The notes beneath the pieces were generated by a model. It was not told the DNA's origin. It saw only the letters and a program-made list of their open reading frames with translations, and did not search any database. Shown here in pieces: positions 7,750 through 25,050 of a stretch of DNA of 64,000 bases. The position numbers and the translations under genes are program-made. The DNA lies in NCBI GenBank assembly GCA_965250285.1, contig OZ252299.1, forward strand, positions 4,544,001 through 4,608,000. The letters are read 5' to 3'. Every line of letters starts with the position of its first letter. Position 1 is the stretch's first letter. This DNA comes from Myxococcota bacterium (GTDB lineage: Bacteria > Myxococcota_A > UBA9160 > UBA4427).

Positions 7750-8664
7750 CTAGAGCTTCGAGAGCACCGGGATCGTCGCGAACGCCAGCGTGTCGCCGAG
7801 CTGCTTGCCGGAGGCGATCCGGTTCATGAAGGTGCTGCTCAGCATCGCCTGCATGTGGTCGATCCCCGGGTAGTAGACCGCGGCGAACGACGAAAACCGG
7901 CTGTCGCCCTCGACCGTGACGGCCCGTCCCATGTGCATCGGACCGTATGCCCCTTCGGCCATGCCGCGCACCATCTGGTAGCTGTAGGCGCGGTCGGCCG
8001 CCCGCTGATCGGACGTGCCCGGTAGGAGCAGGTTGAAGATCACGACCGCGTCCTCGCGCACGTCCCGGTACGCATCGAATCTCCCGAGCATTTCTTTCCC
8101 CCGTTCCCGGAACTCGGGGAGGGCGTCTTCTTCGCTCACCGGCTGGAAGGGGAGGATGTTGTCCCGGCGCCGAGCGATGTCGAGCAGTCGCACGCCTCCG
8201 AGACCGAGTGGGATCAAGAGGTTGGTGAGCGCCGATCGCTCGAACCCATGGACGTGGCTGTGCTCGCACTGCTGCAACGCATGCTTCAGCTCGGGGCCAT
8301 TGTGACTTCGGTCGAAAGCCTTGCGCGACGGCCAGTGGGCGAGGATGGCCGCACTCCAGTCGTTCTCGAGCTGGGTCGAAGGCACCATGGTCTGCACGAC
8401 GAGACCGGCGTAGACGAGCTGCCCGCCGCCTGCCTCGATCGCGTCGCGCACGGCGCGGAGAGCTGCGAGCTCACCATCACGCCCCGCTTCATCGTTCACC
8501 CTCAGCAGCAAGACGCCGTGGAAGGTGTGGCCGCCATGCAGAAGAGGCTGGCGGTCGTCGACGCGCTCGCGTCGGATCTCGAGGTATCGGAAGTGCTGCC
8601 ACAGCGCGGCCAAGACCAGGCCGACCACGGCGAGGGCAAGAAGCAGGAACGCGATCTTCAGCAC
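7750..8664 (-). CDS. Membrane-anchored DUF1330-like protein (paralog of 5916..6809)
   Basis: Shares LWQH.RY..IRR, ENDW.A, GT..Q.AADRAY, MAE..YGP.H.GR.V, YPG and KQ.GDT with 5916..6809. Confidence 0.7.
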   Translation of the reverse strand: MLKIAFLLLALAVVGLVLAALWQHFRYLEIRRERVDDRQPLLHGGHTFHGVLLLRVNDEAGRDGELAALRAVRDAIEAGGGQLVYAGLVVQTMVPSTQLENDWSAAILAHWPSRKAFDRSHNGPELKHALQQCEHSHVHGFERSALTNLLIPLGLGGVRLLDIARRRDNILPFQPVSEEDALPEFRERGKEMLGRFDAYRDVREDAVVIFNLLLPGTSDQRAADRAYSYQMVRGMAEGAYGPMHMGRAVTVEGDSRFSSFAAVYYPGIDHMQAMLSSTFMNRIASGKQLGDTLAFATIPVLSKL

Positions 8665-8713
8665 TGGACGAGTCTCCGGGGCGTGTTTCGTCGGACCGAG
8701 CGACAGAGAAGCG

Positions 8714-9019
8714 CTAGGGCTGCTTCTTCACGTGGATGTCGTTCACCTTCCACGCCCCGCCGATCTCGCGCCAGACCGTTCCGATGATGCCCTCCTGTTC
8801 GTCATTGCCGAGGATGAGATCCACCGGATGGTCGTCGCCCTCCGCGGGCAGAAGCACGGCCTCCTTGCGGGTGGGCGTTCCACCCTGCGGCTGCGGCCCC
8901 TGACCGAGGGCCATTGCCTTGGACATGCCTTCGGACGTGAACGTGGCCATCAGCCCGCCCATGTTCTGGGCGATCAAGTCTTCGATGAACTGATTCGCGG
9001 CTTCTTGCAGGTCGGCCAT
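8714..9019 (-). CDS. Hypothetical protein (101 aa, possibly NTF2-like)
   Basis: ATG 9019 follows AAGGAG. C-terminal WREIGGAWKVNDI strand. Confidence 0.6.
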   Translation of the reverse strand: MADLQEAANQFIEDLIAQNMGGLMATFTSEGMSKAMALGQGPQPQGGTPTRKEAVLLPAEGDDHPVDLILGNDEQEGIIGTVWREIGGAWKVNDIHVKKQP

Positions 9020-9339
9020 GGCGGCTCCTTCTCGATCGGGCGCAGGGGGTGCGCCGGTGTGTGTTCGGGGTCGGAGCGAGCGGCGGAATGGCCGCGACGC
9101 ACGCACGACATCGGTGAGATCAGGCGGGCTCCTCGTCCGGGCCTCCTGCCGTGCAGCGCTCCAGCCGTGATTCTAGTGAGTCGAACCAAAATATGAAAGA
9201 ACTTCCGATTGACAGTACTATCTATTTTTGAGAGGTTGCGGTGGGCCGAAGCAAGATCCCCACACCTGCAACACACCCCGTGGAGGTTCTTCGCAGCCAG
9301 ACCCAGAGTCCCGCCACCCTCACGACTGGGAGCCTCCCG

Positions 9340-10074
9340 ATGAAGCAGATCCTGATCGCGGCCCTCGTGCTCGTCCTTCCCGGCACCTCGACTGCGCAGG
9401 ACGTAGGTCACGAGCTGCTCGACGCCTCGGCCGGTTTTCCGATCGTGGTCTGGGGAAACCAGGAGATCACGACCCCGGAGTACGACGCGCTGGTGCTCCC
9501 GCCAGGATGGCTCCGCAACGAGCCGCGTGAGGGTGTCGGTCAGGCAGGCCAGTTCCTCCGCTCCCCGGGTCTTCCCGCCGACGGCCAGTTCACGACCCAG
9601 GAGCTGTACGGCTTCACCTGGCTGCATCAGGCGTCGGTCGTGGGCGTGGGCGGCAACCTCGACCCGGGCGGCCTTCTGACGGCGAACACCGTCGAGAAGC
9701 ACCACGAACTCGTGTGGCCAGCCGGCAGCAACGCGACCGTGCTGACGGCACCTGGCGGAGAGCAGTACATCCTCGTCTCTCGCGACGCGCAGCGCACGTC
9801 CGACACGCCGACCCTGCCGCCCGGCTGGACCCTGGATGTCAGGCTCGTTGCGTCGGACATCCTCGTCCAACTGCCCCTCCAGACCACGGTCATTCGGGCG
9901 GACAACGAGGACTCGTTCCAAGGCCCCGTCCCCGCCAGCGTCCTTCCGGTCCCCGCGCCCGTCCCCGTTCTGCCGACGCCCGGATGGGTCGTGATCGGCG
10001 CTTGTCTTCTCGCGAGCGGCGTGGCGCTCGCAAGCACAGCCGCCACGCCTCCGGGACTCATGAAGGACGGTTGA
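9340..10074 (+). CDS. Secreted protein with IPTL-CTERM-like sorting tail
   Basis: Signal peptide MKQILIAALVLVLPG. C-terminal VPVLPTPGWVVIGACLLASGVAL. Confidence 0.7.
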   Translation: MKQILIAALVLVLPGTSTAQDVGHELLDASAGFPIVVWGNQEITTPEYDALVLPPGWLRNEPREGVGQAGQFLRSPGLPADGQFTTQELYGFTWLHQASVVGVGGNLDPGGLLTANTVEKHHELVWPAGSNATVLTAPGGEQYILVSRDAQRTSDTPTLPPGWTLDVRLVASDILVQLPLQTTVIRADNEDSFQGPVPASVLPVPAPVPVLPTPGWVVIGACLLASGVALASTAATPPGLMKDG

Positions 10075-10092
10075 CCCGGCGCTCGGACGCGG

Positions 10093-10437
10093 GTAGCTGC
10101 TTCATTGAGCGTCGGCGCCGCCAACACGAGCGAGGCACTATGGATCTCGGCCGAGATCTCCGCCCAGGCCTGGCTCGAGAGCTCGCCCTGGGCCACGGCC
10201 TCCTGACCAGCCTGCTCCGCCTGTGCAATGAGCTCGCCGATCTGCGTCACGTCGGCTGCGACCGAGTCGGGGCAGACGTTGCGGAAGACGAAGGCGTTCG
10301 CCGCGCGATCCGATGCGGCACCAACCGCGTCGCGCGACAGCAGATCGTGCCGCTGCACGGCGTACTTCGTGATCCCACCGACGAGGGGGCCAGGCGTGAG
10401 GTTCAAAGCGATCGAGAATGCACGCCGCACCGGCGAG
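10093..10437 (-). pseudogene. Orphan 3' fragment paralogous to the C-terminal region of 19967..22000
   Basis: RRAFSIALNLTPGPLVGGITKYAVQRHDLLSRDAV...EQAGQEAVAQGE aligns almost residue for residue with about 20105..20450. An in-frame TAG lies shortly upstream and the N-terminal part is absent. Confidence 0.75.
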
Positions 10438-10843
10438 GTGGAGCAGGTCGCCGCGCGAACGAGCGAGGCGCCCGCCGAGTCGGGCGTTCGCTAGGCGCTT
10501 CGCGCACACAGACGTCGCCCCAGCGCTGGCTCGATGCCATCGGCGGCGTGGCGTCTGCTCTGCTCCCTGAGGCGTGCGCTGATTGCGCCCAACGGGTGGC
10601 CAGGACCGTCTCGGGCGAACTCTGCTCTGCGGAGAGTCCCTGATTCACAGGGGGGATGTGCCGATCGGCCCATGTCCCGGCTCTCGGCCAGCCCATAGGC
10701 TGTCTCCGAGAAGATTCGGATCGAGCGGCCGAAACGAGCCGCGGCGTCCGGACGGCCGGGCCCGGAGAAGATGAGAGACGTCGCGTCGGGGTCGGGCACA
10801 GCGGGGATGCAAGGCGGCAAGCCGACCCCGGGAGAGCCTGTTC

Positions 10844-11920
10844 ATGTCATGGCCTGATCGAGACTGCGGCGAGAGGCGTCGAACGCTGGGGCGGGCCGTC
10901 GCCCTACTCATGGCGACATTCGGCGCCCTCGCATGTGACGGCGAGAACTCGCCGCTGATCGTCGACGAGACGGCGATCATTGCGAACGCCGGCCTCAACG
11001 AGGTCGTGGCCTACGACGAGCCGAGCACGCTCTCGAACCCGGCGACGCCGAGTCGAGCGACCGACGAACCGCTCCTGCAGCCCTACGCCGTCGCGCTCGA
11101 CGAAGACGGTTCGATCTGGGTCGTCGAGAACGTGGGCGATCCCGGGGCGATGCAGCCTGCCGGACACATCCTCCGCTATGCGCCCTTCGATCTCTCCGAG
11201 CCCGAGGACGTCTTCGATGGGGTTCTCAGCTATCCCACCGATCTGGCGATCGGCGACGACGGGCGCATCTGGATCGCGAATTCGGGGCTCGATTGGACTG
11301 GAACCCCTCGCGGTGGCACATCGATCACGACCATCGCTCCAGGCGCCAACGTCGTGTCGGCGGGCTTCACCTTCGACAACACGAGCTTCGGCTACCCGCT
11401 CGGCGTGGCGCTCGATTCGAATGGAGACGTCTGGCTGACGACAACCTATGGCCTGTTGCTGATGTTCGCGTCTCCGGTGGACGAGATCGGCGGCATGGCC
11501 ACACCCGAGGTCATCATCGTCGGTTTCGGCGGCATGACCGACTTCTTCGACGAGCTGCGCGACGTCGTGCTGGATGACGAAGACGACGTCGTGGTTTCAG
11601 CCAGCCTCCGGGGACAGGGGCGCGTCATCGAGATCGCGCGCGACTCATGGGCAACGGGTGGGGCCGTGACGACCCTCGAAGCAGCCGACGTCGTGACCGA
11701 GCTGACGAGCGACCTCTACGGCAACTGGGGGATCGCCTTTGGCGAGAACGGAGACCTCTGGGTGGTGAACTCGACGGACCCAGACGACAACGCCGACAGC
11801 ACCGGCAGCCTGTTGCGATTCGCTTCGGACGTCACGGGGACGACCTTCGAGACCACGCCGACCCTCGAGATCGACCTGGACTCGCGATTCACGCTCAGCG
11901 TCGCCGTCGGGCGGCCTTGA
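10844..11920 (+). CDS. Acidic NHL/Vgb-like beta-propeller lipoprotein
   Basis: Lipobox-like ALAC. Repeated P..(V/L)A(L/I)D.DG.(I/V)W blades. Confidence 0.75.
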   Translation: MSWPDRDCGERRRTLGRAVALLMATFGALACDGENSPLIVDETAIIANAGLNEVVAYDEPSTLSNPATPSRATDEPLLQPYAVALDEDGSIWVVENVGDPGAMQPAGHILRYAPFDLSEPEDVFDGVLSYPTDLAIGDDGRIWIANSGLDWTGTPRGGTSITTIAPGANVVSAGFTFDNTSFGYPLGVALDSNGDVWLTTTYGLLLMFASPVDEIGGMATPEVIIVGFGGMTDFFDELRDVVLDDEDDVVVSASLRGQGRVIEIARDSWATGGAVTTLEAADVVTELTSDLYGNWGIAFGENGDLWVVNSTDPDDNADSTGSLLRFASDVTGTTFETTPTLEIDLDSRFTLSVAVGRP

Positions 11921-11923
11921 GCC

Positions 11924-12190
11924 GTGCGCGCCTGGGAGTGTCCGCGAGGTCGCTTCCTGGTCGGTCGATCCGGGGGGCTGGACAGATGCACCGACGACGG
12001 GGGGCCGGTGCTGATCGATGTCCCCTTCGAGGTGGACGCACCGCTGGCCGACGGCACGACCGATCGACTCGTCGTCTACCTGAGTGCGGTGGTCGGCGCT
12101 TTCGCGACCCCGGAGTCGATCGGATCCTACGAAGCGAGCGCGACCATGACGGGCGAAGCAAGCGTGAGAAAGGTGGGCGAGGGCGAGTAG
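11924..12190 (+). CDS. Possible short hypothetical protein or gene fragment
   Basis: The 3' half has coding-like codon usage. No motif recognised and no clear RBS. Confidence 0.25.
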   Translation: MRAWECPRGRFLVGRSGGLDRCTDDGGPVLIDVPFEVDAPLADGTTDRLVVYLSAVVGAFATPESIGSYEASATMTGEASVRKVGEGE

Positions 12191-12320
12191 CGACACTCGA
12201 GCTGCTCGCTCTTCCGGCCTTCGCACCGTTCGTACGCGATTAGCCCGACGGGCGGTCGGTCCGGTCTGGCGAGAAGGGGTCTCTGCAGCGGATTCGCCGA
12301 TGGGTGGGCGGGTAGCGCAC

Positions 12321-14333
12321 TCAGCTCGCCTGGGCGCTCCAGCCGAGCTCGCGGGCCCGCGCGCGCGCCTGCGCGGGGATGTCGGCGGCCACGAGCTGCG
12401 CATGCATGACCTGCACGCCGATCATGTGGTTGAAGACCGCATCGAGTGTGTTGCGCGTGGCGACGGTCGTCCCCGGTGCATCGTGCTGGGCGAAGAGTCG
12501 GGCGACGCCCTCCGCAGAGAGGAGCCCCGCCGCTTCGATCGCGCCCGGAGAGAGATGGCGGTCGGCGAGAGCCTGCATGGCCTTCCACTTCTCGGGGTCC
12601 GTATGCGCCGGCGGCGCCATGAAGGCGAACTTCTCGCGTTCGTAGAGGACGCGCGGGAGCAGGCCGCGCATCGCCTCGCGCAGCACCCACTTCTCGGTTC
12701 GGCCCTTGATTCGAACGGTGGGCGGAAGCGTGGCCGCGACCTCGGCCAGGTGGTGGTCGAGAAAGGCGGGGCGAGCCTCCATCGAGTTCGCCATGTCGAC
12801 CCGGTCTCCGCCCCAGGTCAAGATCTGGCCCTCGAGCATCGTCTTGATCCACACGTACTGCGCGCGGTCGAGGGGATGGCGGCCCTTCATCGCGTCGGCG
12901 TCGAGCGCCTCTGCAATCGCCCGACCCGGCTCATAGCCGGCCAGGTCGGCTGCGATGTCGGGGTGGAGAATGCCCGGCACATGCGTCGAGGCCGCGAGCC
13001 AGGGCTGAAGGCAGGCGGGCGTGAAGCCCACTCGGTCGACGAGCGCGGCGTCGGTGACCGTGTCCTCGGCCAGCATCGCGCCCTTGAAGAGCGCGTTCTT
13101 CTCGTGGAGCGTCGCCTCCCACTCGCGTCGATCGGCTTCGGGCAGATCGTCGAGCCCGTGCAGAAAGAGGTCGTTTCGAAACGCGGGATAGCCGGCAAAG
13201 AGCTCGTCCGAGCCTTCGCCGGTGACGACGACCTTGTATCCGGCGTCGCGGACGTGCCGGCTCATGAGCAGCTTGGCCACGGCGAGCGTGTTGTAGATCG
13301 ACCGCTCGGTGTGCCAGAGCGTCTCTTCGAAGTGGTCGTAGAGATGCGTGGCATCGAGGCGCAGCACATCTTGATCGGCGCCGACCGCTTCGGCCATCTC
13401 GCGCGCGATGGGCGTCTCGTCGTACTCCGCGCTGTCGAAGCCGATCGTGAAGGCTTTGACCGGCGATTGCTGGGCCGCCGAGGCCAGCCCGAGGATCGAG
13501 CACGAGTCGATGCCGCCGGACAGGTAACAGCCGACGGGGACGTCGGCTTCGAGCCGGAGCTGCACGGCCTCGAGGAGCCCCGCGCGCACCGCCTCCACGC
13601 ATTCGTCGTCCGAGAGCTTCGCGTGGCCGCCCTTCTCGGGGAAGTCGATGTCCCAGTAGCGGCGCTCCTCGACCGTGAGTCTTCCGTCCCGGCGGCGGAC
13701 GCGGACCGCATGGCCGGGTGAGACCTGGCGAACGCCTGCGAAGGCCGTCGTGCCGGGGACGATCGTCTGCATCAGCTGGTGGTAGACGCCCTGCGGATCG
13801 AATCGACGCGGCACGTCGGGGTGGGCGAAGAGCACCTTGAGCTCGGAGCCGAAGACCAGCGCGTCGTCGGTCGCGACGTAGTAGAGCGGCTTGATCCCGA
13901 AGCGGTCGCGCACCAGCGTGAGCTCGTCCTCCTCGCGGTCGTAGACCGCGAAGGCGAACTCGCCGCGCAGGTGTTCGAGGGTGGCGTCGATGCCGAGGCG
14001 CGGCGCCATGTGGAGGACCAGCTCCGAGTCGCTCTTCGTGACGAACCGGGCCCCCCGCGCAGTGAGGTCCGCCCGGAGTCGCTTGTAGTCATAGAACTCG
14101 CCGTTCTGGGCGAGCAGCCAGCGGCCGTCCCGGCTGACGAAGGGCTGGCGGCCACGCTCCTCGTCGAGGTCGATGATCGACAGCCGCGCGTGGCTCATGC
14201 CGACGCCGTCCATCGTCTTCCAGCCGAAGCCATCGGGACCGCGGTGGTATTGGATCGCCGCCATCGCGACCAGGGTGTCGGGGTCGACGGGGCGCGCTCG
14301 GTCGGCGTGGAAGACGCCAGCGATGCCACACAT
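12321..14333 (-). CDS. asnB: Asparagine synthase (glutamine-hydrolysing) family amidotransferase
   Basis: MCGIAG (Ntn Cys), HRGPD, HARLSIID, NGEFY, RDRFGIKPLYY, LSGGIDS, TGEGSDELFAGY, SMEARPAFLD. Confidence 0.93.
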   Translation of the reverse strand: MCGIAGVFHADRARPVDPDTLVAMAAIQYHRGPDGFGWKTMDGVGMSHARLSIIDLDEERGRQPFVSRDGRWLLAQNGEFYDYKRLRADLTARGARFVTKSDSELVLHMAPRLGIDATLEHLRGEFAFAVYDREEDELTLVRDRFGIKPLYYVATDDALVFGSELKVLFAHPDVPRRFDPQGVYHQLMQTIVPGTTAFAGVRQVSPGHAVRVRRRDGRLTVEERRYWDIDFPEKGGHAKLSDDECVEAVRAGLLEAVQLRLEADVPVGCYLSGGIDSCSILGLASAAQQSPVKAFTIGFDSAEYDETPIAREMAEAVGADQDVLRLDATHLYDHFEETLWHTERSIYNTLAVAKLLMSRHVRDAGYKVVVTGEGSDELFAGYPAFRNDLFLHGLDDLPEADRREWEATLHEKNALFKGAMLAEDTVTDAALVDRVGFTPACLQPWLAASTHVPGILHPDIAADLAGYEPGRAIAEALDADAMKGRHPLDRAQYVWIKTMLEGQILTWGGDRVDMANSMEARPAFLDHHLAEVAATLPPTVRIKGRTEKWVLREAMRGLLPRVLYEREKFAFMAPPAHTDPEKWKAMQALADRHLSPGAIEAAGLLSAEGVARLFAQHDAPGTTVATRNTLDAVFNHMIGVQVMHAQLVAADIPAQARARARELGWSAQAS

Positions 14334-14344
14334 GGGACGGACTC

Positions 14345-15418
14345 CTACCGGTAGGTCTTCAGCATGGCCGAGAGCAGCGCCATGCGGATGAAGACCGCGC
14401 CGCGAGCCTGCGCGAAGTACCAGTTGTGAGGGGTGCGGTCGAGATCACGGGCGAGCTCCTCGCCGCGAGCGAGGGGGTGGAGCACGATGGCGCCGGCCTT
14501 GAAGGGAGAGCTCGCGTCGAGCCGGAACCGTGCGCCCATCGACTCGTAGTCGTCGCCCTTCCAGGCGATCGCGTTGATGTAGACGGCGTCGAGCTCGGGC
14601 AGCACGGGCTCCAGCTCGTTGACGACCGAGAAGCGCAGCCCCGCCTTCTCGAGCTCCTCCCGCTGGTCGGACGAGAAGGGCTCGGGCTCGTCGCTGATGA
14701 TGTCGATCTGCTCGATGTTGGCCGCGAACTGCGAGAGCAGGATGAGCAGGCTGCGAACGGTGCGCATCTGCGAGGGGACACCCACGATCCCGATTCGGGG
14801 TGGCGCCTCGACCCCATCTTCCGCGAGGTCCGGACGCCACTTGAGCAGGGCGTAGAGATCGGCCAGTGCCTGGGTGGGATGCTCGTCGATCCCGTTGCCC
14901 GCGTTGATGATCGGAACGCGGAGCGAGTCGAGCATGTCATAGACCGAGTGCTCGTCGCTGTCACGCAGCACGACGACGTCACCATAGTGGTTCAGCATCT
15001 CGGCGATGTCAGAGAGCGACTCGCCCTTGGCGAGCCCGGTGGAGAGCGGGTCGGTGATCGACATGACGTCGCCGCCGAGACGATGCCAGGCGCTCTCGAA
15101 GGAGAGCCGCGTCCGCGTGCTGGGCTCGTAGAAGGCGCTGACCAGGATCTTGCCCGTGAGCGGGCGGCTGATCACCTGGGGCTGTGTCTCGTAACGGGCG
15201 GCGAGCCGCGAGAGCTGCACGATCTGGTCGCGGTCGAACTGGCGGGCCGAGATCACCGGTCGGTCCGAGATCTCGAGCAGCGGCGCGAGATTCTCGGCGA
15301 TCGACTCGATCAGCTCTCGCGGGCGCTCGAAGCCCTGGATATCGAGCTCGTGCTCCTCGCTGGCGAGCCCGTCTTCGAGCGCAAGCTCGAGTGTTCTCCG
15401 TTTCTTCGGGTCTACCAC
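14345..15418 (-). CDS. Aspartate/ornithine carbamoyltransferase family protein (PyrB-like, atypical acceptor site)
   Basis: FYEPSTRTRLSFE, KGESL, NAGNG..EHPTQ, RTVRS, HPLAR. Likely GTG start at 15418 after GGAG (ORF track gives 15448). Confidence 0.88.
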   Translation of the reverse strand: MVDPKKRRTLELALEDGLASEEHELDIQGFERPRELIESIAENLAPLLEISDRPVISARQFDRDQIVQLSRLAARYETQPQVISRPLTGKILVSAFYEPSTRTRLSFESAWHRLGGDVMSITDPLSTGLAKGESLSDIAEMLNHYGDVVVLRDSDEHSVYDMLDSLRVPIINAGNGIDEHPTQALADLYALLKWRPDLAEDGVEAPPRIGIVGVPSQMRTVRSLLILLSQFAANIEQIDIISDEPEPFSSDQREELEKAGLRFSVVNELEPVLPELDAVYINAIAWKGDDYESMGARFRLDASSPFKAGAIVLHPLARGEELARDLDRTPHNWYFAQARGAVFIRMALLSAMLKTYR

Positions 15419-15534
15419 AGGCGTCTCCCGCGGGCGTCGCGGATCCACAGCACCACGAGGATGACGGGCGCGAGGGTCGCTACGACAGTCGCGAGGGTCA
15501 CCAATGCGCTCAGGAATCCGACGGAGGCTGTCAT
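15412..15534 (-). CDS. 40-aa single-pass membrane protein
   Basis: MTASVGFLSALVTLATVVATLAPVILVVLWIRDARGRRLW. AAGGAG RBS; the stop overlaps the next start. Confidence 0.7.
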   Translation of the reverse strand: MTASVGFLSALVTLATVVATLAPVILVVLWIRDARGRRLW

Positions 15535-15547
15535 CGTCGTGTCTCCT

Positions 15548-16978
15548 TCATCCTTCGGTTCCGCCGAGTGAAGACCAATCGAAGGGCTCCGGGGCCACAC
15601 GGACAGCGACGCACACGATGGCCATCGAGACGGCCGCCGAGACCAGTGCGGCCACGTAGAAGCCGATCGTCGAGTAGGCGATCAGTCCCGCCGCCGTCCC
15701 GAGGAACATCGCCGCCGACGCACCGACGGGGCTCGCGTTGCGCCAGTAGAGCCCGGTCGCGATCGGCCAGATCGTGCTGGCGACGAACGCGCCCGTGAAG
15801 TGGAGCAGCTCGGCGAGGGTGGCGAGCCTCGGCATGCAGAGGGCCCAGGTGAGCACGCCGATCCCGAGCACGATCCAGCGCGCCGCACGCGCGAGCTCTG
15901 CGGCGTCGGCATCGGGCCGGAGGTGCCCCTTGTAGAGGTCGGTCAGCACGAGATCGGAGGTGGCGGCGAGCAGCGAGTCGAGGCTCGAAGCGAGCGCAGC
16001 GAAGACGACGATGAAGACGAGGATCGCGCCGCCCTGGCCGAGCAGGTGAGCGGCCACCATCGGCCCGACCATGTCGGCAGACGGCACGTTCAGGCCGAGC
16101 GCGGGCACGGTCAGCGCGACGAACCCCGCGACGATGGGAACCGGGATCCAGAGGGCGCCGGCGATCAGGTAGGCGGGCAGACCCACCCCCTCCCGAAACG
16201 CGAAGGCTCGGCTCCACCAGACATTCGAGTGGAAGATCTCGCCGACACCGAAGAGCAGGTTGTTGAAGAGGAACATGATGGCGGCGGGGAAGAGCAGATT
16301 GAGGAGCTCGGGGCGCTCGGCCAGGGTGGCCTCGTGCATGCGATCGAAGCCGACGCGATCGATCGCGAGCCACGCCAGCACGCTCACGCCGACCAGGATG
16401 ATGACGGTCTGGATGAAGTCGGTTCCGATCACGGCGCGCAGGCCACCGAGCAACGTGTAGGCGACGCAGATTGCCACGATGACGGTCATGCCGAGGCGGT
16501 ACTCGATGCCCGTCAATGCGTGGATCAGGACCCCGCCCGCCGTGCCCATCGAGATCAGCCAGCCCAGGGCGTAGAAGAGCGAGATGGCGAGGAAGATCCG
16601 CCAGGCCGTCTTGCCGTAGCGGAGCCGAATGAAATCGCCGCTCGTGAAGCCGCCGGGCATCAGGCTCCGGATGCGGCGGGCAAGCGGAGCGAAGAGCAGC
16701 AGGCCGACGGCGCCCAGCGAGTAGCCGATCATGCCCCAGACCCCGAGCTGCAGCGCCAGCTGGGGAGCGGCCATGGTCGTGTTGCTCGTGACCCAGGTGG
16801 CCATCGCGGTGGCGACGCCCAGCGCCAGCCCCACGCGACGCCCCGCGAGCATGAAGCCCTCGAGATCCTCGGTCTCCCGCCCGAAGTACCAGCCGAGCGC
16901 GACCCACAAGACACTGAACGCCGCGAGGATGCCCCAGCCGACGTTCGGATCGAGGATGGCGGTCTGGACTTCACTCAT
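15548..16978 (-). CDS. Sodium:solute symporter (SSS; urea/DUR3-like)
   Basis: Many TM helices, FMLAGRRVG, YTLLGGLRAVIGTDFIQ, AALASSLDSLLAA. Confidence 0.9.
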   Translation of the reverse strand: MSEVQTAILDPNVGWGILAAFSVLWVALGWYFGRETEDLEGFMLAGRRVGLALGVATAMATWVTSNTTMAAPQLALQLGVWGMIGYSLGAVGLLLFAPLARRIRSLMPGGFTSGDFIRLRYGKTAWRIFLAISLFYALGWLISMGTAGGVLIHALTGIEYRLGMTVIVAICVAYTLLGGLRAVIGTDFIQTVIILVGVSVLAWLAIDRVGFDRMHEATLAERPELLNLLFPAAIMFLFNNLLFGVGEIFHSNVWWSRAFAFREGVGLPAYLIAGALWIPVPIVAGFVALTVPALGLNVPSADMVGPMVAAHLLGQGGAILVFIVVFAALASSLDSLLAATSDLVLTDLYKGHLRPDADAAELARAARWIVLGIGVLTWALCMPRLATLAELLHFTGAFVASTIWPIATGLYWRNASPVGASAAMFLGTAAGLIAYSTIGFYVAALVSAAVSMAIVCVAVRVAPEPFDWSSLGGTEG

Positions 16979-17747
16979 GCTCGGCCTTTGCGAGTGCCTC
17001 GACCTCGTCGATCGCTTCTGCCGTGGAGAGCACGCGTGCGTAGCGATCCCTCAGCGTGGTGATGGTGGCCTCCTGGAGCTCGGGCGTGACGGTCGCGCAA
17101 CCGTCACCGATCAGTGTCACATAGTAGCCGAGGTCGCAGGCGTCCCGGATCGCGGTCGAGACGCACTCGTTCGAGTACACCCCCGTGACAAAGAGCGCGT
17201 TGACGTCGAGATTGCGCAGGACATAGTTCAGGTTGGTCGAGTTGAAGACGCCGGACGCCGTCTTGCTGATCACGATCTCGTCGGACGCGGGGGCCACGAT
17301 CTCGACGAACTCCGCCTCCTTCGACCCGGGCGGCGCATGGAGACCGAGGCGCTTGTGGCCCGGGCTGCGATCGCGGCCGTTCGCGGTCAGCGAGGCGATG
17401 CGGGTGTGGATGACCTCGAGCCCTGCGCCTCGAAATGCGTCTTGCAGCCGGCGCACGTTCGGCAGCACCACGTTTTCGAGCCTTCCGAAGTAGTACTCCT
17501 GGGCCTCGAGCGGCACCCCCGAGGCCTCGACGCGCGCAAAGACACCGTGGCCGCGAACGGCGTCGAGGTACTGCATGTCGATGCAGAGCAGCGCCGTATG
17601 CGCCCCCCGAAGCGAACGCTGAAGCGCCGGCGTCTCGGTGAAGGCCTCCCGATAGGGGGCCTTCAGCGGGTCGACGTTCAGAAACGACGGGTGATCGAAT
17701 CGGACGGTCGGCTGACCCAGCGGTCCCTCTTCGTCCTCGTCGTTCAT
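16971..17747 (-). CDS. Isochorismatase-family cysteine hydrolase (amidase)
   Basis: ALLCIDMQ (Asp), ISKTASGVFNST (Lys), GVYSNECVSTAIRDACDLGY (Cys). ATG 17747 overlaps the upstream stop. Confidence 0.88.
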   Translation of the reverse strand: MNDEDEEGPLGQPTVRFDHPSFLNVDPLKAPYREAFTETPALQRSLRGAHTALLCIDMQYLDAVRGHGVFARVEASGVPLEAQEYYFGRLENVVLPNVRRLQDAFRGAGLEVIHTRIASLTANGRDRSPGHKRLGLHAPPGSKEAEFVEIVAPASDEIVISKTASGVFNSTNLNYVLRNLDVNALFVTGVYSNECVSTAIRDACDLGYYVTLIGDGCATVTPELQEATITTLRDRYARVLSTAEAIDEVEALAKAEHE

Positions 17748-18985
17748 CGCGCCAGCTCCAGCATCGTATGGAGAAGGACGTTTGCGCCCCGGGCGATGTC
17801 CGCGGGCGAGGTCCACTCTGCGGGCGAGTGGCTGCGGCCCCCCCGGCTTGGGACGAAGATCATGCCGGCGGGTGCAACCCGCGCGATCATCTGCGTGTCG
17901 TGGGCCGCGCCCGAGGGCATGGGCAAGGGTGAGACGTCGAGTCGGTCGCAGGCGCTCTGCACCGCCGAGAGGACGCGTTCGTGACATGCGACAGGCTCGA
18001 TCTCGCTCACGAGCTCGAACTCGAAGCCGAGGTCACGGCGGCGTGCGATCGCCGAGAACGTGCGTCGGAATGCATCCGAAAGGGTGTCGAGCGTCTGCGG
18101 GTCGGTATCCCGCACCTCGAGCGCGAGCCGCGCCTCGCCCGGCACGACGTTCGCCGCGCCCGGAACGAGCTCGATGCGTCCGATCGTCGCGCGACTGCGC
18201 GGGCTGCCGTGCTCTTCGAGGATGCGATCGATCTGGCCTGCGAGCTCGGCGGCGCCCCGGAAGGCGTCCCGCCGCATGTCCATGGGTGTCGTGCCGGCGT
18301 GGTTCGCTTCGCCGATCAACCGCACGTCCCATCGGAAGAGGCCGGTGATCGCGTCGACCATCCCAATCGTCGCGCCGTCGCGTTCCAACACGGGACCCTG
18401 CTCGATGTGCAGCTCGACGAACGCGTGAATCGAGCCCGGCGGCCGCTCTGCGGTGAGGGCATCGCGCGCGTGGTAGCCGCATTCGCCCATCGCAGTCTCG
18501 AGGCTGACCCCGTCGAGATCGCGAGCGAGCGCGATCGACTCGGGCGTGAGCTGCCCGCTCATCGCCTGCGAGCCCAGCATGCCGCCAAAGCGCCCCTCTT
18601 CGTCGGAGAACGCGACGAGCTCGACCGGCCGCTCGAGCGGCACGCCGTTCTCGACCAGCACCCGGAGGACTTCGAGACCGGCCACGACGCCGTACGCGCC
18701 GTCGAGCTGGCCGGCGTCGGGAACCGTGTCGAGATGGGAGCCCGTCATGACGCAGGGCACGTCGTCGAGCTCGGTATCGGGCCAGCGTGCGCCGAGGTTC
18801 GCGGCCCCGTCGACGCGCGTCTTCAGGCCGCACTCATCGAAGCGATCGACGAGCCACCGACGTGCGGCCATGTCGGCGGGGGTGAAGGCGCGCCGATTCA
18901 GGCCGGGCGTGTCGCCCGCCCCGATGCGAGCCAGCGCGGCGAGGTCGGCTTCGAGGCGCGCGGCGTCGATGCAGAGCTCAGCCAT
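17744..18985 (-). CDS. Zn-dependent N-carbamoyl-L-amino-acid hydrolase / allantoate amidohydrolase family (M20)
   Basis: GSHLDTVP..G.LDG.YG, DEEGRFG, ELHIEQGPVLE, GEANHAGTTPM, SGAAHD, GRSHSPAE. Confidence 0.92.
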   Translation of the reverse strand: MAELCIDAARLEADLAALARIGAGDTPGLNRRAFTPADMAARRWLVDRFDECGLKTRVDGAANLGARWPDTELDDVPCVMTGSHLDTVPDAGQLDGAYGVVAGLEVLRVLVENGVPLERPVELVAFSDEEGRFGGMLGSQAMSGQLTPESIALARDLDGVSLETAMGECGYHARDALTAERPPGSIHAFVELHIEQGPVLERDGATIGMVDAITGLFRWDVRLIGEANHAGTTPMDMRRDAFRGAAELAGQIDRILEEHGSPRSRATIGRIELVPGAANVVPGEARLALEVRDTDPQTLDTLSDAFRRTFSAIARRRDLGFEFELVSEIEPVACHERVLSAVQSACDRLDVSPLPMPSGAAHDTQMIARVAPAGMIFVPSRGGRSHSPAEWTSPADIARGANVLLHTMLELAR

Positions 18986-19508
18986 GCGCGGATCCCGTGG
19001 AAGCCCCCACCGCGTCCTTTCCCTCCGAGGCGGCGCCTCGGACGACGACGACGATCGTCCCCGCGAACACGAAGAGCCCGACCGCAAAGAAGGCGAGCGC
19101 GCGCCCAAGGGGATGGTGTTCGACGTCGACCTGCACGGGCTCGCTCGGGATCGACCCGTCGCCCGTACGAAGCCGGTAGGTATAGGTGCCGTCGCTTCGG
19201 CCGGTGAGCGTTGTGGCCTGATCCTGGCCCCGGTACACGACCCGTGCATCGCCGAAATCCGCCGAGCTCGACTCCTCGAGCACGGCGGGACCGCCGAACT
19301 CCCAGGACAGCTGGTAGACGCCATCGCTCGACTGAGAGGTCGAAGCCGTCAGCCTCGGGGCTGCGCCTGCATCCGTCGCGGCGATGAGCGGTGCCACGAG
19401 AAGGAAGGCCGACGCGATCAGGAGAGAGGAGGCGGCTCGCTCGAGCCTTCCGGTCGCGGGGGCTGGCACGACGAGCGAAGCGGCTGTGCTCCTCTGGCCC
19501 AATCTCAC
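18978..19508 (-). CDS. Exported FN3/Ig-like domain protein with C-terminal TM anchor
   Basis: Hydrophobic signal, YQLSW...DGTYTYRLR beta-sandwich pattern, C-terminal TM. Stop overlaps the next gene; start uncertain. Confidence 0.65.
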   Translation of the reverse strand: MRLGQRSTAASLVVPAPATGRLERAASSLLIASAFLLVAPLIAATDAGAAPRLTASTSQSSDGVYQLSWEFGGPAVLEESSSADFGDARVVYRGQDQATTLTGRSDGTYTYRLRTGDGSIPSEPVQVDVEHHPLGRALAFFAVGLFVFAGTIVVVVRGAASEGKDAVGASTGSAHG

Positions 19509-19966
19509 ACCCTTCGCTGCCGCGGCCCACCTGCGGCCGCGCGAAAGCCGAGCAGGCTAGCAGCCCGATCCGGCGAGTGCCGTTCTTCCCGATCGCGGCC
19601 CGTCGGCGGCTTGGCTCGCCGCGCCTCGATGCAGACCGATCGAGAAAGGGGCGTGCTGATTCCGGCCGATCCGGGCAACTCGGTTCGAGACTCCGTGCGT
19701 CCTCGACGCATGTTCAGGGCCGACACGGAGCGACGGGCGGCGGTTTCGGGCTCGGGAGATCTGGTGTCTCCCACGAATTCCGCGATACGCCCGGAGGATA
19801 CAGGGAAGAGGGTCCGACGCGAAATCGCGATCCGGCCGCTCACCGCGCGAAGAGCTGCTCAGACCTGCCTCGTGCGCGAGTTTCCTACACGGTCGAACAC
19901 GGAGCGTTCCGACGGCCAGGTCGGAAGACGCAGCGATCTTCGCCCATGGTGCGCTCGAACGCGCCG

Positions 19967-22000
19967 TCAGCAGATCGACTTCCGGCGTTGGACCGCCCAC
20001 GAGCCGACAGCAAGAAAGCCGCTCACCAAGCAAACGAATCCCGATGCGCCCAGCGCGGGGACCGGCTCTGCGGGTGAGAGGGCCTCGCAGGCGTTCTCGA
20101 GGTGCGTCGCGGCGTCATTCAGCGTCGACACATCGAGCGCGAGCGAGGCGCTCTGGATCTCCGCGGAGATCGCCGTCCAGGCCGCACTCGAGATCTCGCC
20201 CTGGGCCACGGCCTCTTGACCGGCCTGCTCGGCCTGCGAGATCAGCTCGCCGATCTGCGTCACGTCCGCTGCGGCTGAGTCGGGGCACGTTGCGCGGAAG
20301 GCAAAGGCATTCGTCGCGCGATCCGAGGCGGCACAGACCGCGTCACGCGACAGCAGATCGTGTCGGCGCACGGCGTACTTCGTGATCCCGCCGGATAGCG
20401 GACCGGGCGTCAGGCCCAATGCGATGGAGAATGGACGCCGCGCCGGCGAGTTGCCGATATAGAGCGACCCATCCGCACCCGACGTCAAGACTGCGATGCT
20501 CTCTTCGGTGCCGACCGTGAAGGAGCGGACGGCCCCGGTCTCGCGGTCGAGGGTTCCGTAGCCGACCGCCACCGCAAAGGGAATGCCGCTCAGAACAGGG
20601 CCGATCGCGGCCTGGAAGCCCAGCGCGTTTGCACCGATGGAAGGCAGGCTCAGCTTGAACTCGGTGTAGTCGGCTGGGAAGCCCTCGAACAACCCGGCGG
20701 TGCCTGCCTGCCAGCCCTGGACCCCGGTGGCGCCCTCGTCGAACACCTGGGTGATGAAGTCGCGCGAGGGAGCGAAGAGGGCATCGTCGTCGGACGATAC
20801 GCCCACCGATCCCACGATCTGCTGGCCCACGTCCAGCTCCCAGATCGTCGAACAATCCTGAGCCGAGATCGCCAGCAGCTTGCCGGCGTCGTCGCCCACG
20901 TAGATTCGACTCCCGTCGGCCCGCAGCGCGGGCGTCGAGGCCGAGCCTCCCTGGAACGAAGCGTGGCATGCCTCTGTCACCTGGAAGCTGCCGCCGTCCG
21001 GGACGATGTCGAGCCCGTACAGGGCGCCGAGCTCCGAGACTCCGTCGACGGTGCCATCCTCTGCGTCGGGCGCCGTCGCTGCGATCCAGAGGCGACCGGT
21101 GAAGGGGTCGATCGAGAACATGTTGGTCACTTCCCTGCCCGCGCCCTGTGCGCCACTGACGAAGGGGGCGAAGGACCCATCAGGGGCGTTCACGAGCGTC
21201 TGCCACTCGTCTTCCGCGGCGGCCACGAGCGTCGGCGGCAGGCTGCCCCCCGCAGCGGGCGACGCCTCACCGGGAAGCTGGAACGGAGCGGTGAGCAGCT
21301 GGGCTCCGGTCGACCGATCGAGGGCGTAGACGAACCCGTCGACGGTGAGCGCAACGATCGCGTCCAGACCCGGGAGGTAGTTGACCCCGAGGACGCCGGC
21401 CGAGGTCGGTGGGGACCCGAGCGAGAGACCAGTGGGGACGTCCCAGATGATCGTCCCATCCGGGCTCACCGAGAGCGCCCGGTCGTAGAGCGCCAGGTAG
21501 ACACGTTGCTCGCCGGGAGCGCTCGGCTCGTCCAGCACCATCGGTGCCGAGGTACCGGGGACGGCGCCGGTCCCGGTGATGGCCCAGCGTCTCGAGCCGT
21601 CGCTGGGATCGATCGAGATCAGGACGACGTTCTCGTAGGGGCGGTAGGGAGAGATGTAGAGATTCCCCGCGTCGTCGATGGCGGGGCCCGTCAGGTTGTA
21701 GGTGGCGGGCTCTGCGACCCACTCGGCCTCGATCACGGGGGCGATCGCTCGCGAGATCTCATCCGTGTTGATCGCGTCCCCATGGATGTTTCGCCAGGAC
21801 TCTCTAGAGGGAACGACCGGATCGTCGTACGGCACCTGGCGGCAGCCGTCTGGGACCCAACTCGTTCGACCGGGAGGATCGAACGACACGACTCCTTGGG
21901 CAGACGCATCCAGTGATGCAGTTGTGGCGCACATGACCGCGCCAAAGAGAATGATCAGCTGAATCAACGTCGTACGCACGGCTGCCTTGCTCGCCTCCAC
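19967..22000 (-). CDS. Secreted PQQ-like beta-propeller protein with IPTL-CTERM-like tail
   Basis: Signal peptide, repeated DG...W blades, C-terminal VPALGASGFVCLVSGFLAVGSWAVQRRK. Confidence 0.75.
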   Translation of the reverse strand: MEASKAAVRTTLIQLIILFGAVMCATTASLDASAQGVVSFDPPGRTSWVPDGCRQVPYDDPVVPSRESWRNIHGDAINTDEISRAIAPVIEAEWVAEPATYNLTGPAIDDAGNLYISPYRPYENVVLISIDPSDGSRRWAITGTGAVPGTSAPMVLDEPSAPGEQRVYLALYDRALSVSPDGTIIWDVPTGLSLGSPPTSAGVLGVNYLPGLDAIVALTVDGFVYALDRSTGAQLLTAPFQLPGEASPAAGGSLPPTLVAAAEDEWQTLVNAPDGSFAPFVSGAQGAGREVTNMFSIDPFTGRLWIAATAPDAEDGTVDGVSELGALYGLDIVPDGGSFQVTEACHASFQGGSASTPALRADGSRIYVGDDAGKLLAISAQDCSTIWELDVGQQIVGSVGVSSDDDALFAPSRDFITQVFDEGATGVQGWQAGTAGLFEGFPADYTEFKLSLPSIGANALGFQAAIGPVLSGIPFAVAVGYGTLDRETGAVRSFTVGTEESIAVLTSGADGSLYIGNSPARRPFSIALGLTPGPLSGGITKYAVRRHDLLSRDAVCAASDRATNAFAFRATCPDSAAADVTQIGELISQAEQAGQEAVAQGEISSAAWTAISAEIQSASLALDVSTLNDAATHLENACEALSPAEPVPALGASGFVCLVSGFLAVGSWAVQRRKSIC

Positions 22001-22017
22001 GGTTGCTGTGTTCTCTT

Positions 22018-22683
22018 CTAGGACGATCTGCTGGGCGGCTCGATGGAGAGGCTGGTCTTCGGACGTCCGTCCTGGCGACGAGCGTCCGAGAGAGCCGAAG
22101 CCATCAGGGCCCGCACGGCTTCGCGCAACACCCGAGCCGCCGCTTCTTCCGACAGCCTCGAGTGGCGCCGCAGCTCCTCCCAGTAGCTGAACGAGAGCAA
22201 CGCGCGGAGCGCGACGATCAGATCGCTGCGCTGGGGCTCCGACAGCGAATCCAACTCAGGAGCAAGCACGGCCCGTAGCTGCCGACGGGCGGCTGCGCGG
22301 CCGAACGCGTACCGGTCTCGGATGACCTTGGAGAACGGCTCGTAGAGCAGCGCCGCCCGGCGAACCGGAGCAATGAGCTCGTTGCGGCGGACCCAATGCC
22401 GAACGAGAGAATCCATTCGCTCTTCGAGCGAGCCCTCGGTCACGACCGGTTCGAGCTGCCCCTTGACCCGTTCGAACTGCAGCTGGGCGGCCGCCTCGAA
22501 AAGCGCCTCCATGTTCTCGAAGTGCCGGAAGACCGCGCGGGACGACACCCCTGCGCGCTCCGCCACCTGATCCGACGAAGGACGCGCCAGACCGGCTTCG
22601 AGGCAGTCGAGCATGGCCGCGGCAACCGCGGCGCGGGTCCGATGGGAGCGGGCCTTTCGACCGTCCTGTTCTTCTTCGACCAT
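22018..22683 (-). CDS. TetR/AcrR family transcriptional regulator
   Basis: DGRKARSHRTR...VAERAGVSSRAVFRHFENMEAL HTH. Confidence 0.92.
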   Translation of the reverse strand: MVEEEQDGRKARSHRTRAAVAAAMLDCLEAGLARPSSDQVAERAGVSSRAVFRHFENMEALFEAAAQLQFERVKGQLEPVVTEGSLEERMDSLVRHWVRRNELIAPVRRAALLYEPFSKVIRDRYAFGRAAARRQLRAVLAPELDSLSEPQRSDLIVALRALLSFSYWEELRRHSRLSEEAAARVLREAVRALMASALSDARRQDGRPKTSLSIEPPSRSS

Positions 22684-22693
22684 CTCTTGTTCC

Positions 22694-22750
22694 TATTTTG
22701 TCGGCCACTCTGACGATATCATATCTATTGTCTGAGTTACCGACAAAATA
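22694..22750. promoter_or_regulatory. 57-bp inverted repeat containing two TGTC-N9-GAC(A/G) palindromes; likely TetR operator
   Basis: TATTTTGTCGG(22694-22704)...CCGACAAAATA(22740-22750), AT-rich, directly upstream of the TetR ATG. Confidence 0.65.
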
Positions 22751-23272
22751 TACGCTCGGAGCGACGGGAGCCTGCGCGAGTCGGCTTGCCCGATGCGGCG
22801 TGAGGGCGTCGGAGCCCCTCCCGTGGGGCTCAACCGCCCACGCCGCGTCTCGATGGGATCTCGCCGAGGCTGTGCGACATCACCGTCGAAGGACGCTCAC
22901 CCGTCGGGCCGCATCACGAGATCTCCCGGCCGGAATGGGTCGAGCCGGCGGGGCGGGGGCCGCCTCAGTGGCGGGTCGGCTCCGCCAGTAGCGACATCGC
23001 TGCGGTGGGAGTGTCTTCTGCGCCCGCTTGCGAGCGCGTGCGCTCGAGCAAGCAATGGCGGAGCGGGCGGCCGATGGAAAACCGGCGCGACGGGATTCCA
23101 ACCGCCCGAGTTCGCAACAGAGATGGTGCGACCGCACCGGCTCGATTCCAGAGAGAGCCGCGAGTCTCCGGTCGGAGTCGCGAACCGGTACCGGGCAAGA
23201 CCCCGCGAACGCGCGCGCTCTCTCACGCCGCGTCTCGGATTCACTGGAATGTCTCGGAACGACCAGACCGAC

Positions 23273-23360
23273 TGGCGGAGAGAGTGGGATTCGAACCCAC
23301 GGTAGGTTTCCCTACACACGCTTTCCAAGCGTGCGCCTTAAGCCACTCGGCCATCTCTCC
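23273..23360 (-). tRNA. tRNA-Ser(GGA)
   Basis: GGAGAGATGGCCGAGTGG...CACGC-TT-GGA-AA-GCGTG, long variable arm, GGTTCGAATCC, ends GCCA. Confidence 0.97.
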
Positions 23361-23455
23361 GTGGAGTCAGTCTGCCGTCGGGGGCGAGCCCCTCCCGCGC
23401 GCCGGGGTCGGTTCGATCGATCAACCAGAGCCAACGCCGATCCAACGCCGAGAGG

Positions 23456-23580
23456 GAGCCTTCAGCCAAGCGACACGGCTTGGCCGTGTCGCAGATACAG
23501 AGCCTTCAGCCAAGCAACACGGCTTGGCCGTGTTGCAGATACAGAGCCTTCAGCCAAGCGACACGGCCGCGCCATGTCGC
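23456..23580. repeat. About 2.8 tandem copies of a 44-bp hairpin-forming unit
   Basis: GAGCCTTCAGCCAAGCGACACGGCTTGGCCGTGTCGCAGATACA-like units start at 23456, 23500 and 23544. Confidence 0.92.
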
Positions 23581-23583
23581 GAT

Positions 23584-23674
<91 letters not shown>

Positions 23675-23793
23675 GGGGGGCGAGACCATACCACGACTGC
23701 CCGGCGAGGGGCGTTCGACGGGCGCTTTTCCTCGTCGAATCAGGGGCTTGGCGCTTTGTCTGGATCGGGCGGCGGGGCCGTGCCGGGGCGGGT

Positions 23794-24963
23794 TCAGTCG
23801 CTCGGCGTGCGGTCGACGATCTCGGTGACGACGACCTTCGAGCGGCCGCTCGCCGCATCGACGGGCCCCGAGATCGGGCTGCCTTCGACGATGGCGTCGA
23901 GGCGATCCTGCATCTGCTCGGGTACGTCGATGAACTCGAGGCCGAGACCCGTGGTCGCGTCGGCGTGCACGACCACGCCGCGCAGCACGAGCGGCGGCGA
24001 GCCCTTGCCGCCGTAGAGCGCGAGCTTGAGCTCGTCGCCTTCGCCGATCTCGGGGTCGGCGGCGAGGCGCATGCCGCCGGCCGAGATGTCGCGGCTCACG
24101 ACGGCCTGGGCCTGACCGCGCAGCGTGGCGAGCATGCGCTTGTGGAACGTCTTGCGCGCCGCGCGCCGTTGGTTGGCGCTTTTGGGTTCTTCGGCCGCCG
24201 GCGCAGCGTCGTTCGACGGCGTCTCGGCGGGCTTCGGCGAACGGGCGTGTTCGGTCGGGCCACCGACGCGACGCGCACCCGGATGCAGCAAGCTGCCGTG
24301 CGCAGCCTGCCCCTTCATGATCTCACGCAGCCGCTTGCGCGCAGCCATACTGGCGTCGCAGAACTCGAGCGCGACAACCGTGCCGTCGCCGGCGCGCGCA
24401 TGCTGCGAGAGCACCCGCGCGCGCAGGTCGAGCTTGCGACCGCCGGTCCAGCTCGTCGGCAAACGCAGCGTGACCTCGTCGGCTTTGATGCCCTCGTCGA
24501 CGTGCAGACCGCACCCTCGCTCCGACAGCTGAAGCAGCGTGGCACGCCGCGTGAAGAAGCCGGCCTTCAGCTTGACTTCGCCGCCGATCATCGCGCGCAT
24601 GCCCTTGCGGCGTTCGGGCCCGCGATAGAGCGCGTGCTCGATCAGCGCGCGCAGGCTCGACGGATCGATCGGCAGCTCGACGACGAAGTCGCATGGGTGT
24701 CGCTCGAGCTCTTTGCGGAGCATGCGCGAGAGCGTCCTGCCCATCACGACGTGCGTGGCGGCGCCGACGCGTGTGCGCAGGCTGGTATCGGAGAGAGCGG
24801 CCTGAGGTGTGGTGATCAGCAGATCGGCCTGGCCGTCGCCTTCGGGCAGGCCGTCGCACCAGCCGATGCCCAGATCGTTCAGCAGGGTCTGCGTCGACGC
24901 GAGCTCACCCGACGCGTCGATCAGGCACACGCGGGGTTCGACCAGGGGCGGGGCTTCGGCCAT
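23794..24963 (-). CDS. Tandem PilZ domain protein with degenerate receiver-like N-terminus
   Basis: ERRKGMR...QLSERG and QRRAARK...DISAGG (RxxxR-like / DxSxxG motifs). Confidence 0.85.
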   Translation of the reverse strand: MAEAPPLVEPRVCLIDASGELASTQTLLNDLGIGWCDGLPEGDGQADLLITTPQAALSDTSLRTRVGAATHVVMGRTLSRMLRKELERHPCDFVVELPIDPSSLRALIEHALYRGPERRKGMRAMIGGEVKLKAGFFTRRATLLQLSERGCGLHVDEGIKADEVTLRLPTSWTGGRKLDLRARVLSQHARAGDGTVVALEFCDASMAARKRLREIMKGQAAHGSLLHPGARRVGGPTEHARSPKPAETPSNDAAPAAEEPKSANQRRAARKTFHKRMLATLRGQAQAVVSRDISAGGMRLAADPEIGEGDELKLALYGGKGSPPLVLRGVVVHADATTGLGLEFIDVPEQMQDRLDAIVEGSPISGPVDAASGRSKVVVTEIVDRTPSD

Positions 24964-25024
24964 CTCGACTCTCCAACCAGCAACGGCAGCGCGGATGAGC
25001 CCCGGATCGAAGCCCGCTCGGGGG

Positions 25025-25050
25025 ATCGGCGCGCGCCGCCTCGGCCTGTA
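25025..25050 (-). promoter_or_regulatory. Possible sigma28-like promoter for the PilZ gene
   Basis: Minus strand TACA-N16-GCCGAT versus the consensus TAAA-N15-GCCGATAA. Confidence 0.25.

Follow-up and report, generated by a model that had tools for sequence, protein, structure and literature searches.

The closest described relatives of the system considered here are the 'pseudo-ATCases' (ATCase being aspartate transcarbamylase), which Barba, Dutoit, Legrain and Labedan defined in 2013 and for which they listed HPLA and AIA motifs (PMC4016543). In a marine subgroup of these proteins the neighboring genes are those of a Na+ symporter, of a 'putative asparaginase' and of a HyuC-like protein, and the available part of that paper gives no function for it (the papers cited here by PMC number were available in part, and statements about them refer to those parts). 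We analyzed a seven-gene operon encoding a member of this family, located in a 64,000-nucleotide stretch of a Myxococcota bacterium genome (contig OZ252299.1, positions 4,544,001 to 4,608,000; the whole stretch is called 'the window' below). We consider it rather probable that this operon provides for making, importing and recycling N-carbamoyl-L-glutamine amide (CGA), a solute reported since 1991 from one bacterium. If so, an orphan compatible solute would gain its genes and a mis-annotated transcarbamylase family its function, and coastal sediments, soda lakes and chemosynthetic symbioses would be places where a metabolite with four nitrogens may be widespread.

The operon resembles the marine pseudo-ATCase subgroup in several respects. 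Its transcarbamylase carries the same STRT, HPTQ, HPLA and AIA motifs; a Na+ symporter gene lies on one side of it and an asparagine-related gene on the other, with an N-carbamoyl-amino-acid hydrolase nearby; and a separate, genuine PyrB is encoded in the same genome, both in the host (at 1.224 Mb) and in strain DSM 4180 of Ectothiorhodospira. It differs in that its AsnB-type neighbor is called a putative asparaginase in PMC4016543, the available part of which mentions no cysteine hydrolase, peptide or fibronectin type III (FN3) protein and contains no occurrence of 'osmo'. The HPLA and AIA motifs correspond to row 1 of Table 1 in that paper and not to row 3 (HSLP and VXP), while in its text the marine group is number 3; the subgroup numbering appears to be swapped between table and text. 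The earlier note on this locus, made from the sequence alone, had named no established gene set for such a pathway. Our searches also found no pathway assignment, but the family itself had already been published, as had part of its gene block (PMC4016543, the only paper that literature searches returned for 'pseudo-ATCase'). Also described there is the ureidoglycine carbamoyltransferase (UGTCase) Rxyl_2847 of Rubrobacter xylanophilus, which like the operon protein is a pseudo-ATCase without the RXQ motif, but which is catabolic and encoded beside carbamate kinase and purine-degradation genes; we found no carbamate kinase above cut-off in any of the five genomes examined (5/5).

A second comparison is with the osmolyte N-acetylglutaminylglutamine amide (NAGGN), the pathway for which the operon appears to parallel by analogy: an alpha-amino cap, amidation of the alpha-carboxylate by an AsnB homolog, and a hydrolase encoded alongside. 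In the NAGGN pathway, Ngg adds an acetyl cap and AsnO amidates, and a peptidase gene accompanies asnO-ngg. The cap differs, being acetyl from Ngg there and presumably carbamoyl from the transcarbamylase here; the operon AsnB scores below the AsnO cut-off (310 versus 570 bits); and the operon has a dedicated importer of the SSS (sodium:solute symporter) type. None of the seven operon proteins matches the Ngg acetyltransferase/ligase family. On the reading favored here the operon would work like the NAGGN system, but it is not a member of it. CGA itself, the solute of E. marismortui, needs exactly two chemical steps from glutamine, carbamoylation and amidation. No genes or enzymes for CGA were returned by literature searches, which miss most subscription journals and theses, so the link between operon and solute is drawn by us.

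All seven open reading frames (ORFs) are intact and together fill the interval given in Table 1, and their junctions are as tight as the earlier note had read them (−8, −4, −8, +13, −7 and +11 bp, from the FN3-like gene to the AsnB gene). The GC content at third codon positions is 0.80–0.91 across the seven genes, in a host genome that forms one 6.25-Mb contig of 68.6% GC, and contigs from two further runs within the same study agree with it in every letter of the operon. A scan of GTDB genomes gave 394 related stretches, of which the best 80 were kept as loci; these loci are therefore the closest relatives and not a random sample. The AsnB gene directly follows the transcarbamylase gene in 75 of the 76 loci with room for it, and the full seven-gene order is found in 33 of the 49 loci long enough to contain all seven genes (31 by scripted pattern, plus L034 and L043, in which the pattern missed a peptide that is visible in the sequence). 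Conservation of this order is far beyond chance, and the co-located homologs that had been predicted from the single locus do exist. A MarR gene related to the copy in locus L062 is present in 25 of the 80 loci.

Table 1. Genes of the operon, in order of transcription (window coordinates)
Feature	Positions	Strand	Basis
FN3-like protein gene	18978–19508	−	ORF; seven-strand beta model; no Pfam/NCBIfam match
M20 amidohydrolase, N-carbamoyl-L-amino-acid hydrolase type	17744–18985	−	TIGR01879, NF006771
Isochorismatase-family cysteine hydrolase	16971–17747	−	PF00857
SSF sodium:solute symporter (SSS)	15548–16978	−	PF00474
40-aa hydrophobic peptide	15412–15534	−	Conserved length and end motif D-x3-G-x-L-W
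ATCase-derived transcarbamylase, 'pseudo-ATCase'	14345–15418	−	OTCace family, residue comparison
Long AsnB-type glutamine-dependent amidotransferase	12321–14333	−	Asn_synthase and GATase; TIGR01536

We aligned the operon transcarbamylase and 78 locus homologs (n = 79) with E. coli PyrB as the reference. The carbamoyl-phosphate motifs STRT, R105 and HPTQ are retained in 78–79 of the 79 sequences, with STRT (S52–T55), K84, R105, H134 and R167 present in all and Q137 in 78. The aspartate-binding residues R229 and Q231 are each found in 0 of 79, the query reading A283-I-A285 at the RXQ motif; S80G and P268A are present in all 79, and W286, which is invariant in the family, may reshape the pocket. 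In ATCase structures R167, K84 and R105 hold the alpha-carboxylate, while R229 and Q231 hold the aspartate side chain; retention of the first three with loss of the other two fits a substrate whose alpha-carboxylate is free and whose side chain is unlike that of aspartate. The protein scores below every ATCase and ornithine transcarbamylase cut-off among the NCBIfam profiles (189 versus 237 bits for TIGR00670, and 183 versus 263 bits for a further ATCase model). By its residues and scores it is an enzyme other than PyrB, as the earlier note had implied, and one that likely carbamoylates glutamine. Its structure model is of low confidence in the active-site loops and is uninformative on the substrate. 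The host's own pyrB-pyrC-carA-carB (1.224 Mb) and argB-argF (6.037 Mb), with gene names read from their sequences, both lie far from the operon, in agreement with the earlier observation that no pyrC or carAB is close by. Of 8000 protein clusters that were scored, 2371 match the transcarbamylase at E ≤ 1e-60; the family is labeled ATCase where it is named, and includes 'Myxococcales bacterium' among its named close relatives; plasmids gave no match to it at E 1e-50.

The AsnB-type protein exceeds the cut-off of the asparagine-synthase model TIGR01536 (417 versus 267 bits) and falls below that of the AsnO model TIGR03104, as noted above. Its glutaminase site is intact among the homologs (C1 in 62 of 63; R49, N74, G75 and D98 in 63 of 63), as are the synthetase and ATP-site residues E348, D351 and K449, so that residues of the two sites together are kept in 62–63 of 63 sequences. 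Where E. coli AsnB has DCARANK, all 62 homologs compared read TWGGDR, a position that we anchored on the following EAR-FLD motif because automatic alignment mis-threads the region. The E. coli segment, with D384 and R387, belongs to the aspartate site. On this comparison the TWGGDR sequence is the mark of a distinct acceptor site, although the motif does not name the acceptor, and the enzyme likely amidates the 1-carboxylate. The best plasmid matches to this protein are 33–40% identical. The host genome gave no AsnO match at E 1e-100; it does encode a second, stand-alone, long AsnB-like protein (4406010–4407944) that is 35% identical to the operon AsnB and is without TWGGDR. A locus of S. meliloti considered as a candidate asnO was rejected, as it contains another AsnB beside a likely AMP-binding enzyme.

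All seven operon genes are also present in Ectothiorhodospira mobilis DSM 4180 (locus L077), which we take to be the strain from which CGA was isolated in 1991. DSM 4180T is the type strain of E. marismortui in PMC7824335, and E. marismortui is named as the producer of CGA in PMC1224877 and PMC3857566. The expectation that homologs would occur in Ectothiorhodospira, and in other marine and halophile genomes, was thus borne out. In DSM 4180 the genes occupy two sites: MarR-M20-cysteine hydrolase-transcarbamylase-AsnB lies between a sucrose synthase gene and a PfkB kinase gene, and FN3-SSS-peptide forms a separate trio elsewhere. The DSM 4180 transcarbamylase is 65% identical to that of the host and has the same motifs. 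This genome, whose completeness is not given, contains three OTCace-family genes, namely ArgF and PyrB (by motifs) and the operon transcarbamylase, and it has no match to CmcH or NodU; the operon enzyme is therefore the only spare carbamoyltransferase seen in the producer. Across the order to which DSM 4180 belongs, 49 of 55 genomes carry the transcarbamylase.

A role in osmoadaptation is suggested by the company that the operon keeps, both locally and across genomes, which is in line with the osmolyte-like system first envisaged. Of the 225 genomes in the class to which the host belongs, 11 encode the transcarbamylase and 22 glycine/sarcosine methyltransferase (GSMT), an enzyme of betaine synthesis. 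GSMT is present in 10 of the 11 carriers of the transcarbamylase versus 12 of 214 non-carriers or, when counted by genus, in 6 of 7 versus 6 of 83. NqrB, which served as an approximate indicator of a marine or sodium-based lifestyle, was found in 99 of the 225 genomes, and the link persists within these 99 (7 of 7 versus 8 of 92) and within the 126 that lack it (3 of 4 versus 4 of 122); the transcarbamylase itself is not linked to NqrB (7 of 11 carriers versus 92 of 214 non-carriers, p 0.22). A genome of the host's own genus (83% complete) gave no match to the transcarbamylase. In the order of DSM 4180, where 41 genomes have both genes, 8 the transcarbamylase only, 2 GSMT only and 4 neither, the same comparison adds little because the genomes with neither gene are small and probably incomplete.

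Among the 40 loci of at least 17 kb, 16 have neighbors of osmolyte type (betaine synthesis, BCCT, OpuC/OsmF-type and sucrose-synthase-like genes) in about five different arrangements, some of the matches being weak at near 30% identity; as a control, the same queries matched 68 (1.1%) of 6228 host-genome windows. GSMT-SDMT directly follows asnB in loci L019, L023, L029, L031 and L035. The host has a betaine cluster, MarR-GSMT-SDMT-BCCT, at 3548388–3552326, and the MarR protein of this cluster shares 44% identity with the one encoded next to the operon in 25 of the 80 loci, which suggests one type of regulator for both osmolyte systems.

The two hydrolases resemble enzymes that would reverse the two synthetic steps. 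The M20 enzyme scores well above the cut-offs of TIGR01879 (390 versus 204 bits) and NF006771 (500 versus 399 bits), its top PDB match is 3n5f (E 4e-85) and its motifs are conserved across 62 sequences; it is likely a decarbamoylase by these criteria of family. Its second-best NCBIfam score is to a model for N-carbamyl-glutamate hydrolase (ErtE), which we take to be an enzyme of ergothioneine degradation; that identity was rejected, as the score of 417 bits is below the cut-off of 520 and a literature search on it yielded nothing relevant among the 20 of 58 papers listed. The cysteine hydrolase has motifs around D57, K162 and C195, presumably its catalytic triad, that are conserved across 56 sequences. 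It falls far below the biuret hydrolase cut-off (73 versus 370 bits) and it matches PDB entries only weakly (lowest E 2.5e-13, with N-carbamoylsarcosine amidohydrolase, 1nba, at E 3e-11); by family it is likely an amidase. The two genes occur together in 49 of 60 loci, with the M20 gene alone in 7 and neither in 4. Eight loci (L021, L039, L044, L049, L054, L069, L071 and L072), mostly Woeseiaceae, have a divergent M20 (~50% identity) in varying positions and no cysteine hydrolase nearby. In an M20 tree, built with no outgroup and hence not a basis for calling a separate recruitment, these eight form one long-branch clade.

The three remaining products would serve uptake. The SSS protein reaches the cut-off of no named SSS model and is mostly 69–87% identical across loci; it is likely the importer of the operon product. 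The FN3-like protein and the 40-residue peptide have no Pfam or NCBIfam match at E 0.01. The FN3-like protein is modeled as seven beta strands and one C-terminal helix (mean pLDDT 92), with two unnamed clusters and one labeled fibronectin type III as its best look-alikes in the Atlas. We classify it as a small membrane-anchored beta-sandwich protein of FN3 or Ig-like type; a signal region is likely at its N terminus, the C-terminal helix is hydrophobic, and the start codon is uncertain. Its gene and the SSS gene are both present in 50 and both absent in 10 of 60 loci. The peptide has the same length and end motif across loci, and for this reason we regard its ORF as real. Among 69 loci examined, all 57 in which an SSS gene is adjacent have the peptide, as do 2 that lack such a gene, and it is likely a small partner subunit of the symporter. 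In loci L009, L016 and L027 the SSS gene is gone and the peptide or a remnant is left, with a piece of the FN3 gene also retained in L027, which looks like recent loss of the symporter.

In the scheme that we favor, carbamoyl phosphate would be supplied by the distant carAB, and the transcarbamylase would transfer its carbamoyl group to the alpha-amino group of L-glutamine. The AsnB-type enzyme, with ATP and glutamine, would then amidate the 1-carboxylate to give CGA. Uptake would proceed via the SSS symporter together with the peptide and the FN3-like protein, and in breakdown the cysteine hydrolase would take off the amide and the M20 enzyme the carbamoyl group. Overall the interpretation first proposed for this locus is supported; the chemical product is deduced from sequence, and may derive from glutamine or else from asparagine or another amino acid. 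A broader proposal, in which we place slightly less than even confidence, is that CGA is a common but overlooked nitrogen-rich osmolyte, which hundreds of species from the sea and from soda lakes, among them lucinid symbionts, Woeseiaceae and sulfur oxidizers, would make and exchange. The transcarbamylase would then have a new specificity, and the SSS importer would consist of three parts (symporter, peptide and FN3 protein).

Several observations weigh against CGA as the product of these operons, or against the osmolyte role. CGA has been reported as a minor solute of a single organism (PMC3857566), whereas related genes occur in 394 GTDB stretches. DSM 4180 also has a true AsnO above cut-off, which could supply the amidation. 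Rhodopirellula (R.) baltica carries the pseudo-ATCase RB13301 (PMC4016543), and its solutes by NMR are sucrose, glutamate, trehalose and MGG (PMC3694870); 'carbamoyl', 'unknown' and 'unidentified' each have no occurrence in the available main text of the latter paper, and RB13301 is not among the differential-expression supplements available from PMC2754498. (RB13294 and RB13300 are in the R. baltica salinity-up sheet; their membership in the operon could not be shown, and we did not count them.) The p-values overstate the association with GSMT, since related genomes do not count as independent and many are incomplete, and the queries of the neighbor test were taken from the same loci and set against one control genome. 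Of the 60 loci with room for the hydrolase pair, 11 have only one of the two or neither. In Thiorhodospira sibirica (L075, 9882–11077) the peptide and transcarbamylase genes stand alone, with an SSS (72%), an AsnB (69%) and an AsnO scattered elsewhere in the genome. Finally, no short canonical AsnB was seen in the host, which together with the TIGR01536 score would allow an asparagine-related role.

The main rival explanation retains the same logic but assigns another product, an N-carbamoyl amide of asparagine, glycine, sarcosine or the like, serving as a solute or nitrogen store. Loss of R229 and Q231 excludes aspartate only, and W286 may reshape the pocket; the transcarbamylase model is unreliable in just these loops. 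The relationship of the cysteine hydrolase to N-carbamoylsarcosine amidohydrolase, the co-occurrence with glycine/sarcosine methyltransferase and the lack of CGA among the R. baltica extracts described in the available part of PMC3694870 would all suit such a product. The known CGA producer, however, has as its only spare carbamoyltransferase an enzyme that shares the host protein's motifs at 65% identity, and the second-best model for the M20 enzyme, though below cut-off, is one for a carbamylated glutamate; we accordingly rate a different product as unlikely.

A catabolic operon, in which the symporter would import a ureido compound from the environment, the transcarbamylase would run in reverse as a phosphorolytic enzyme, the hydrolases would free ammonia and AsnB would store the nitrogen, is improbable. 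Such a role is that of the sole characterized pseudo-ATCase, the Rubrobacter UGTCase (PMC4016543), and an importer with two hydrolases is typical of catabolic operons. The carbamate kinase expected beside such an enzyme is missing above cut-off from all five genomes, a decarbamoylase would be redundant beside a phosphorolytic transcarbamylase, and the co-occurrence with osmolyte genes would be left unexplained. The constant pair is moreover transcarbamylase and AsnB, the importer and both hydrolases being the dispensable parts (absent from 10 and 4 of 60 loci). Least probable is a scheme of asparagine and aspartate nitrogen cycling, with AsnB as a plain asparagine synthetase and the transcarbamylase as a second ATCase or one of relaxed specificity, which is in keeping with the TIGR01536 score, the host's lack of a visible short AsnB and the ATCase label in databases, but which conflicts with the absence of the RXQ motif from 79 of 79 sequences, the canonical PyrB of both the host and DSM 4180, the replacement of the DCARANK segment in 62 of 62 AsnB homologs and the restriction of the transcarbamylase to so few genomes (11 of 225) of the class.

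Promoter and terminator scans of the operon gave no signal above shuffle level, and an Rfam scan of positions 8000–26000 returned tRNA only and no further family. The operon and an NHL-repeat gene (10844–11920) are flanked by a 350-nucleotide direct repeat (10093–10440 and 20106–20453, 82.6% identity), the left copy of which is a fragment matching residues 517–635 of a beta-propeller-like gene (19967–22000). This repeat may be the trace of an old duplication or insertion of the 10-kb block that it encloses. Three tRNA-Ser genes lie within 23273–23674 and 29985–30072, with three tandem 44-nucleotide repeats (23446–23577) between the first and second. At 7750–8664 the window encodes a 304-residue membrane-anchored protein without a Pfam match, which has three paralogs in the genome, one of them ~1 kb away.

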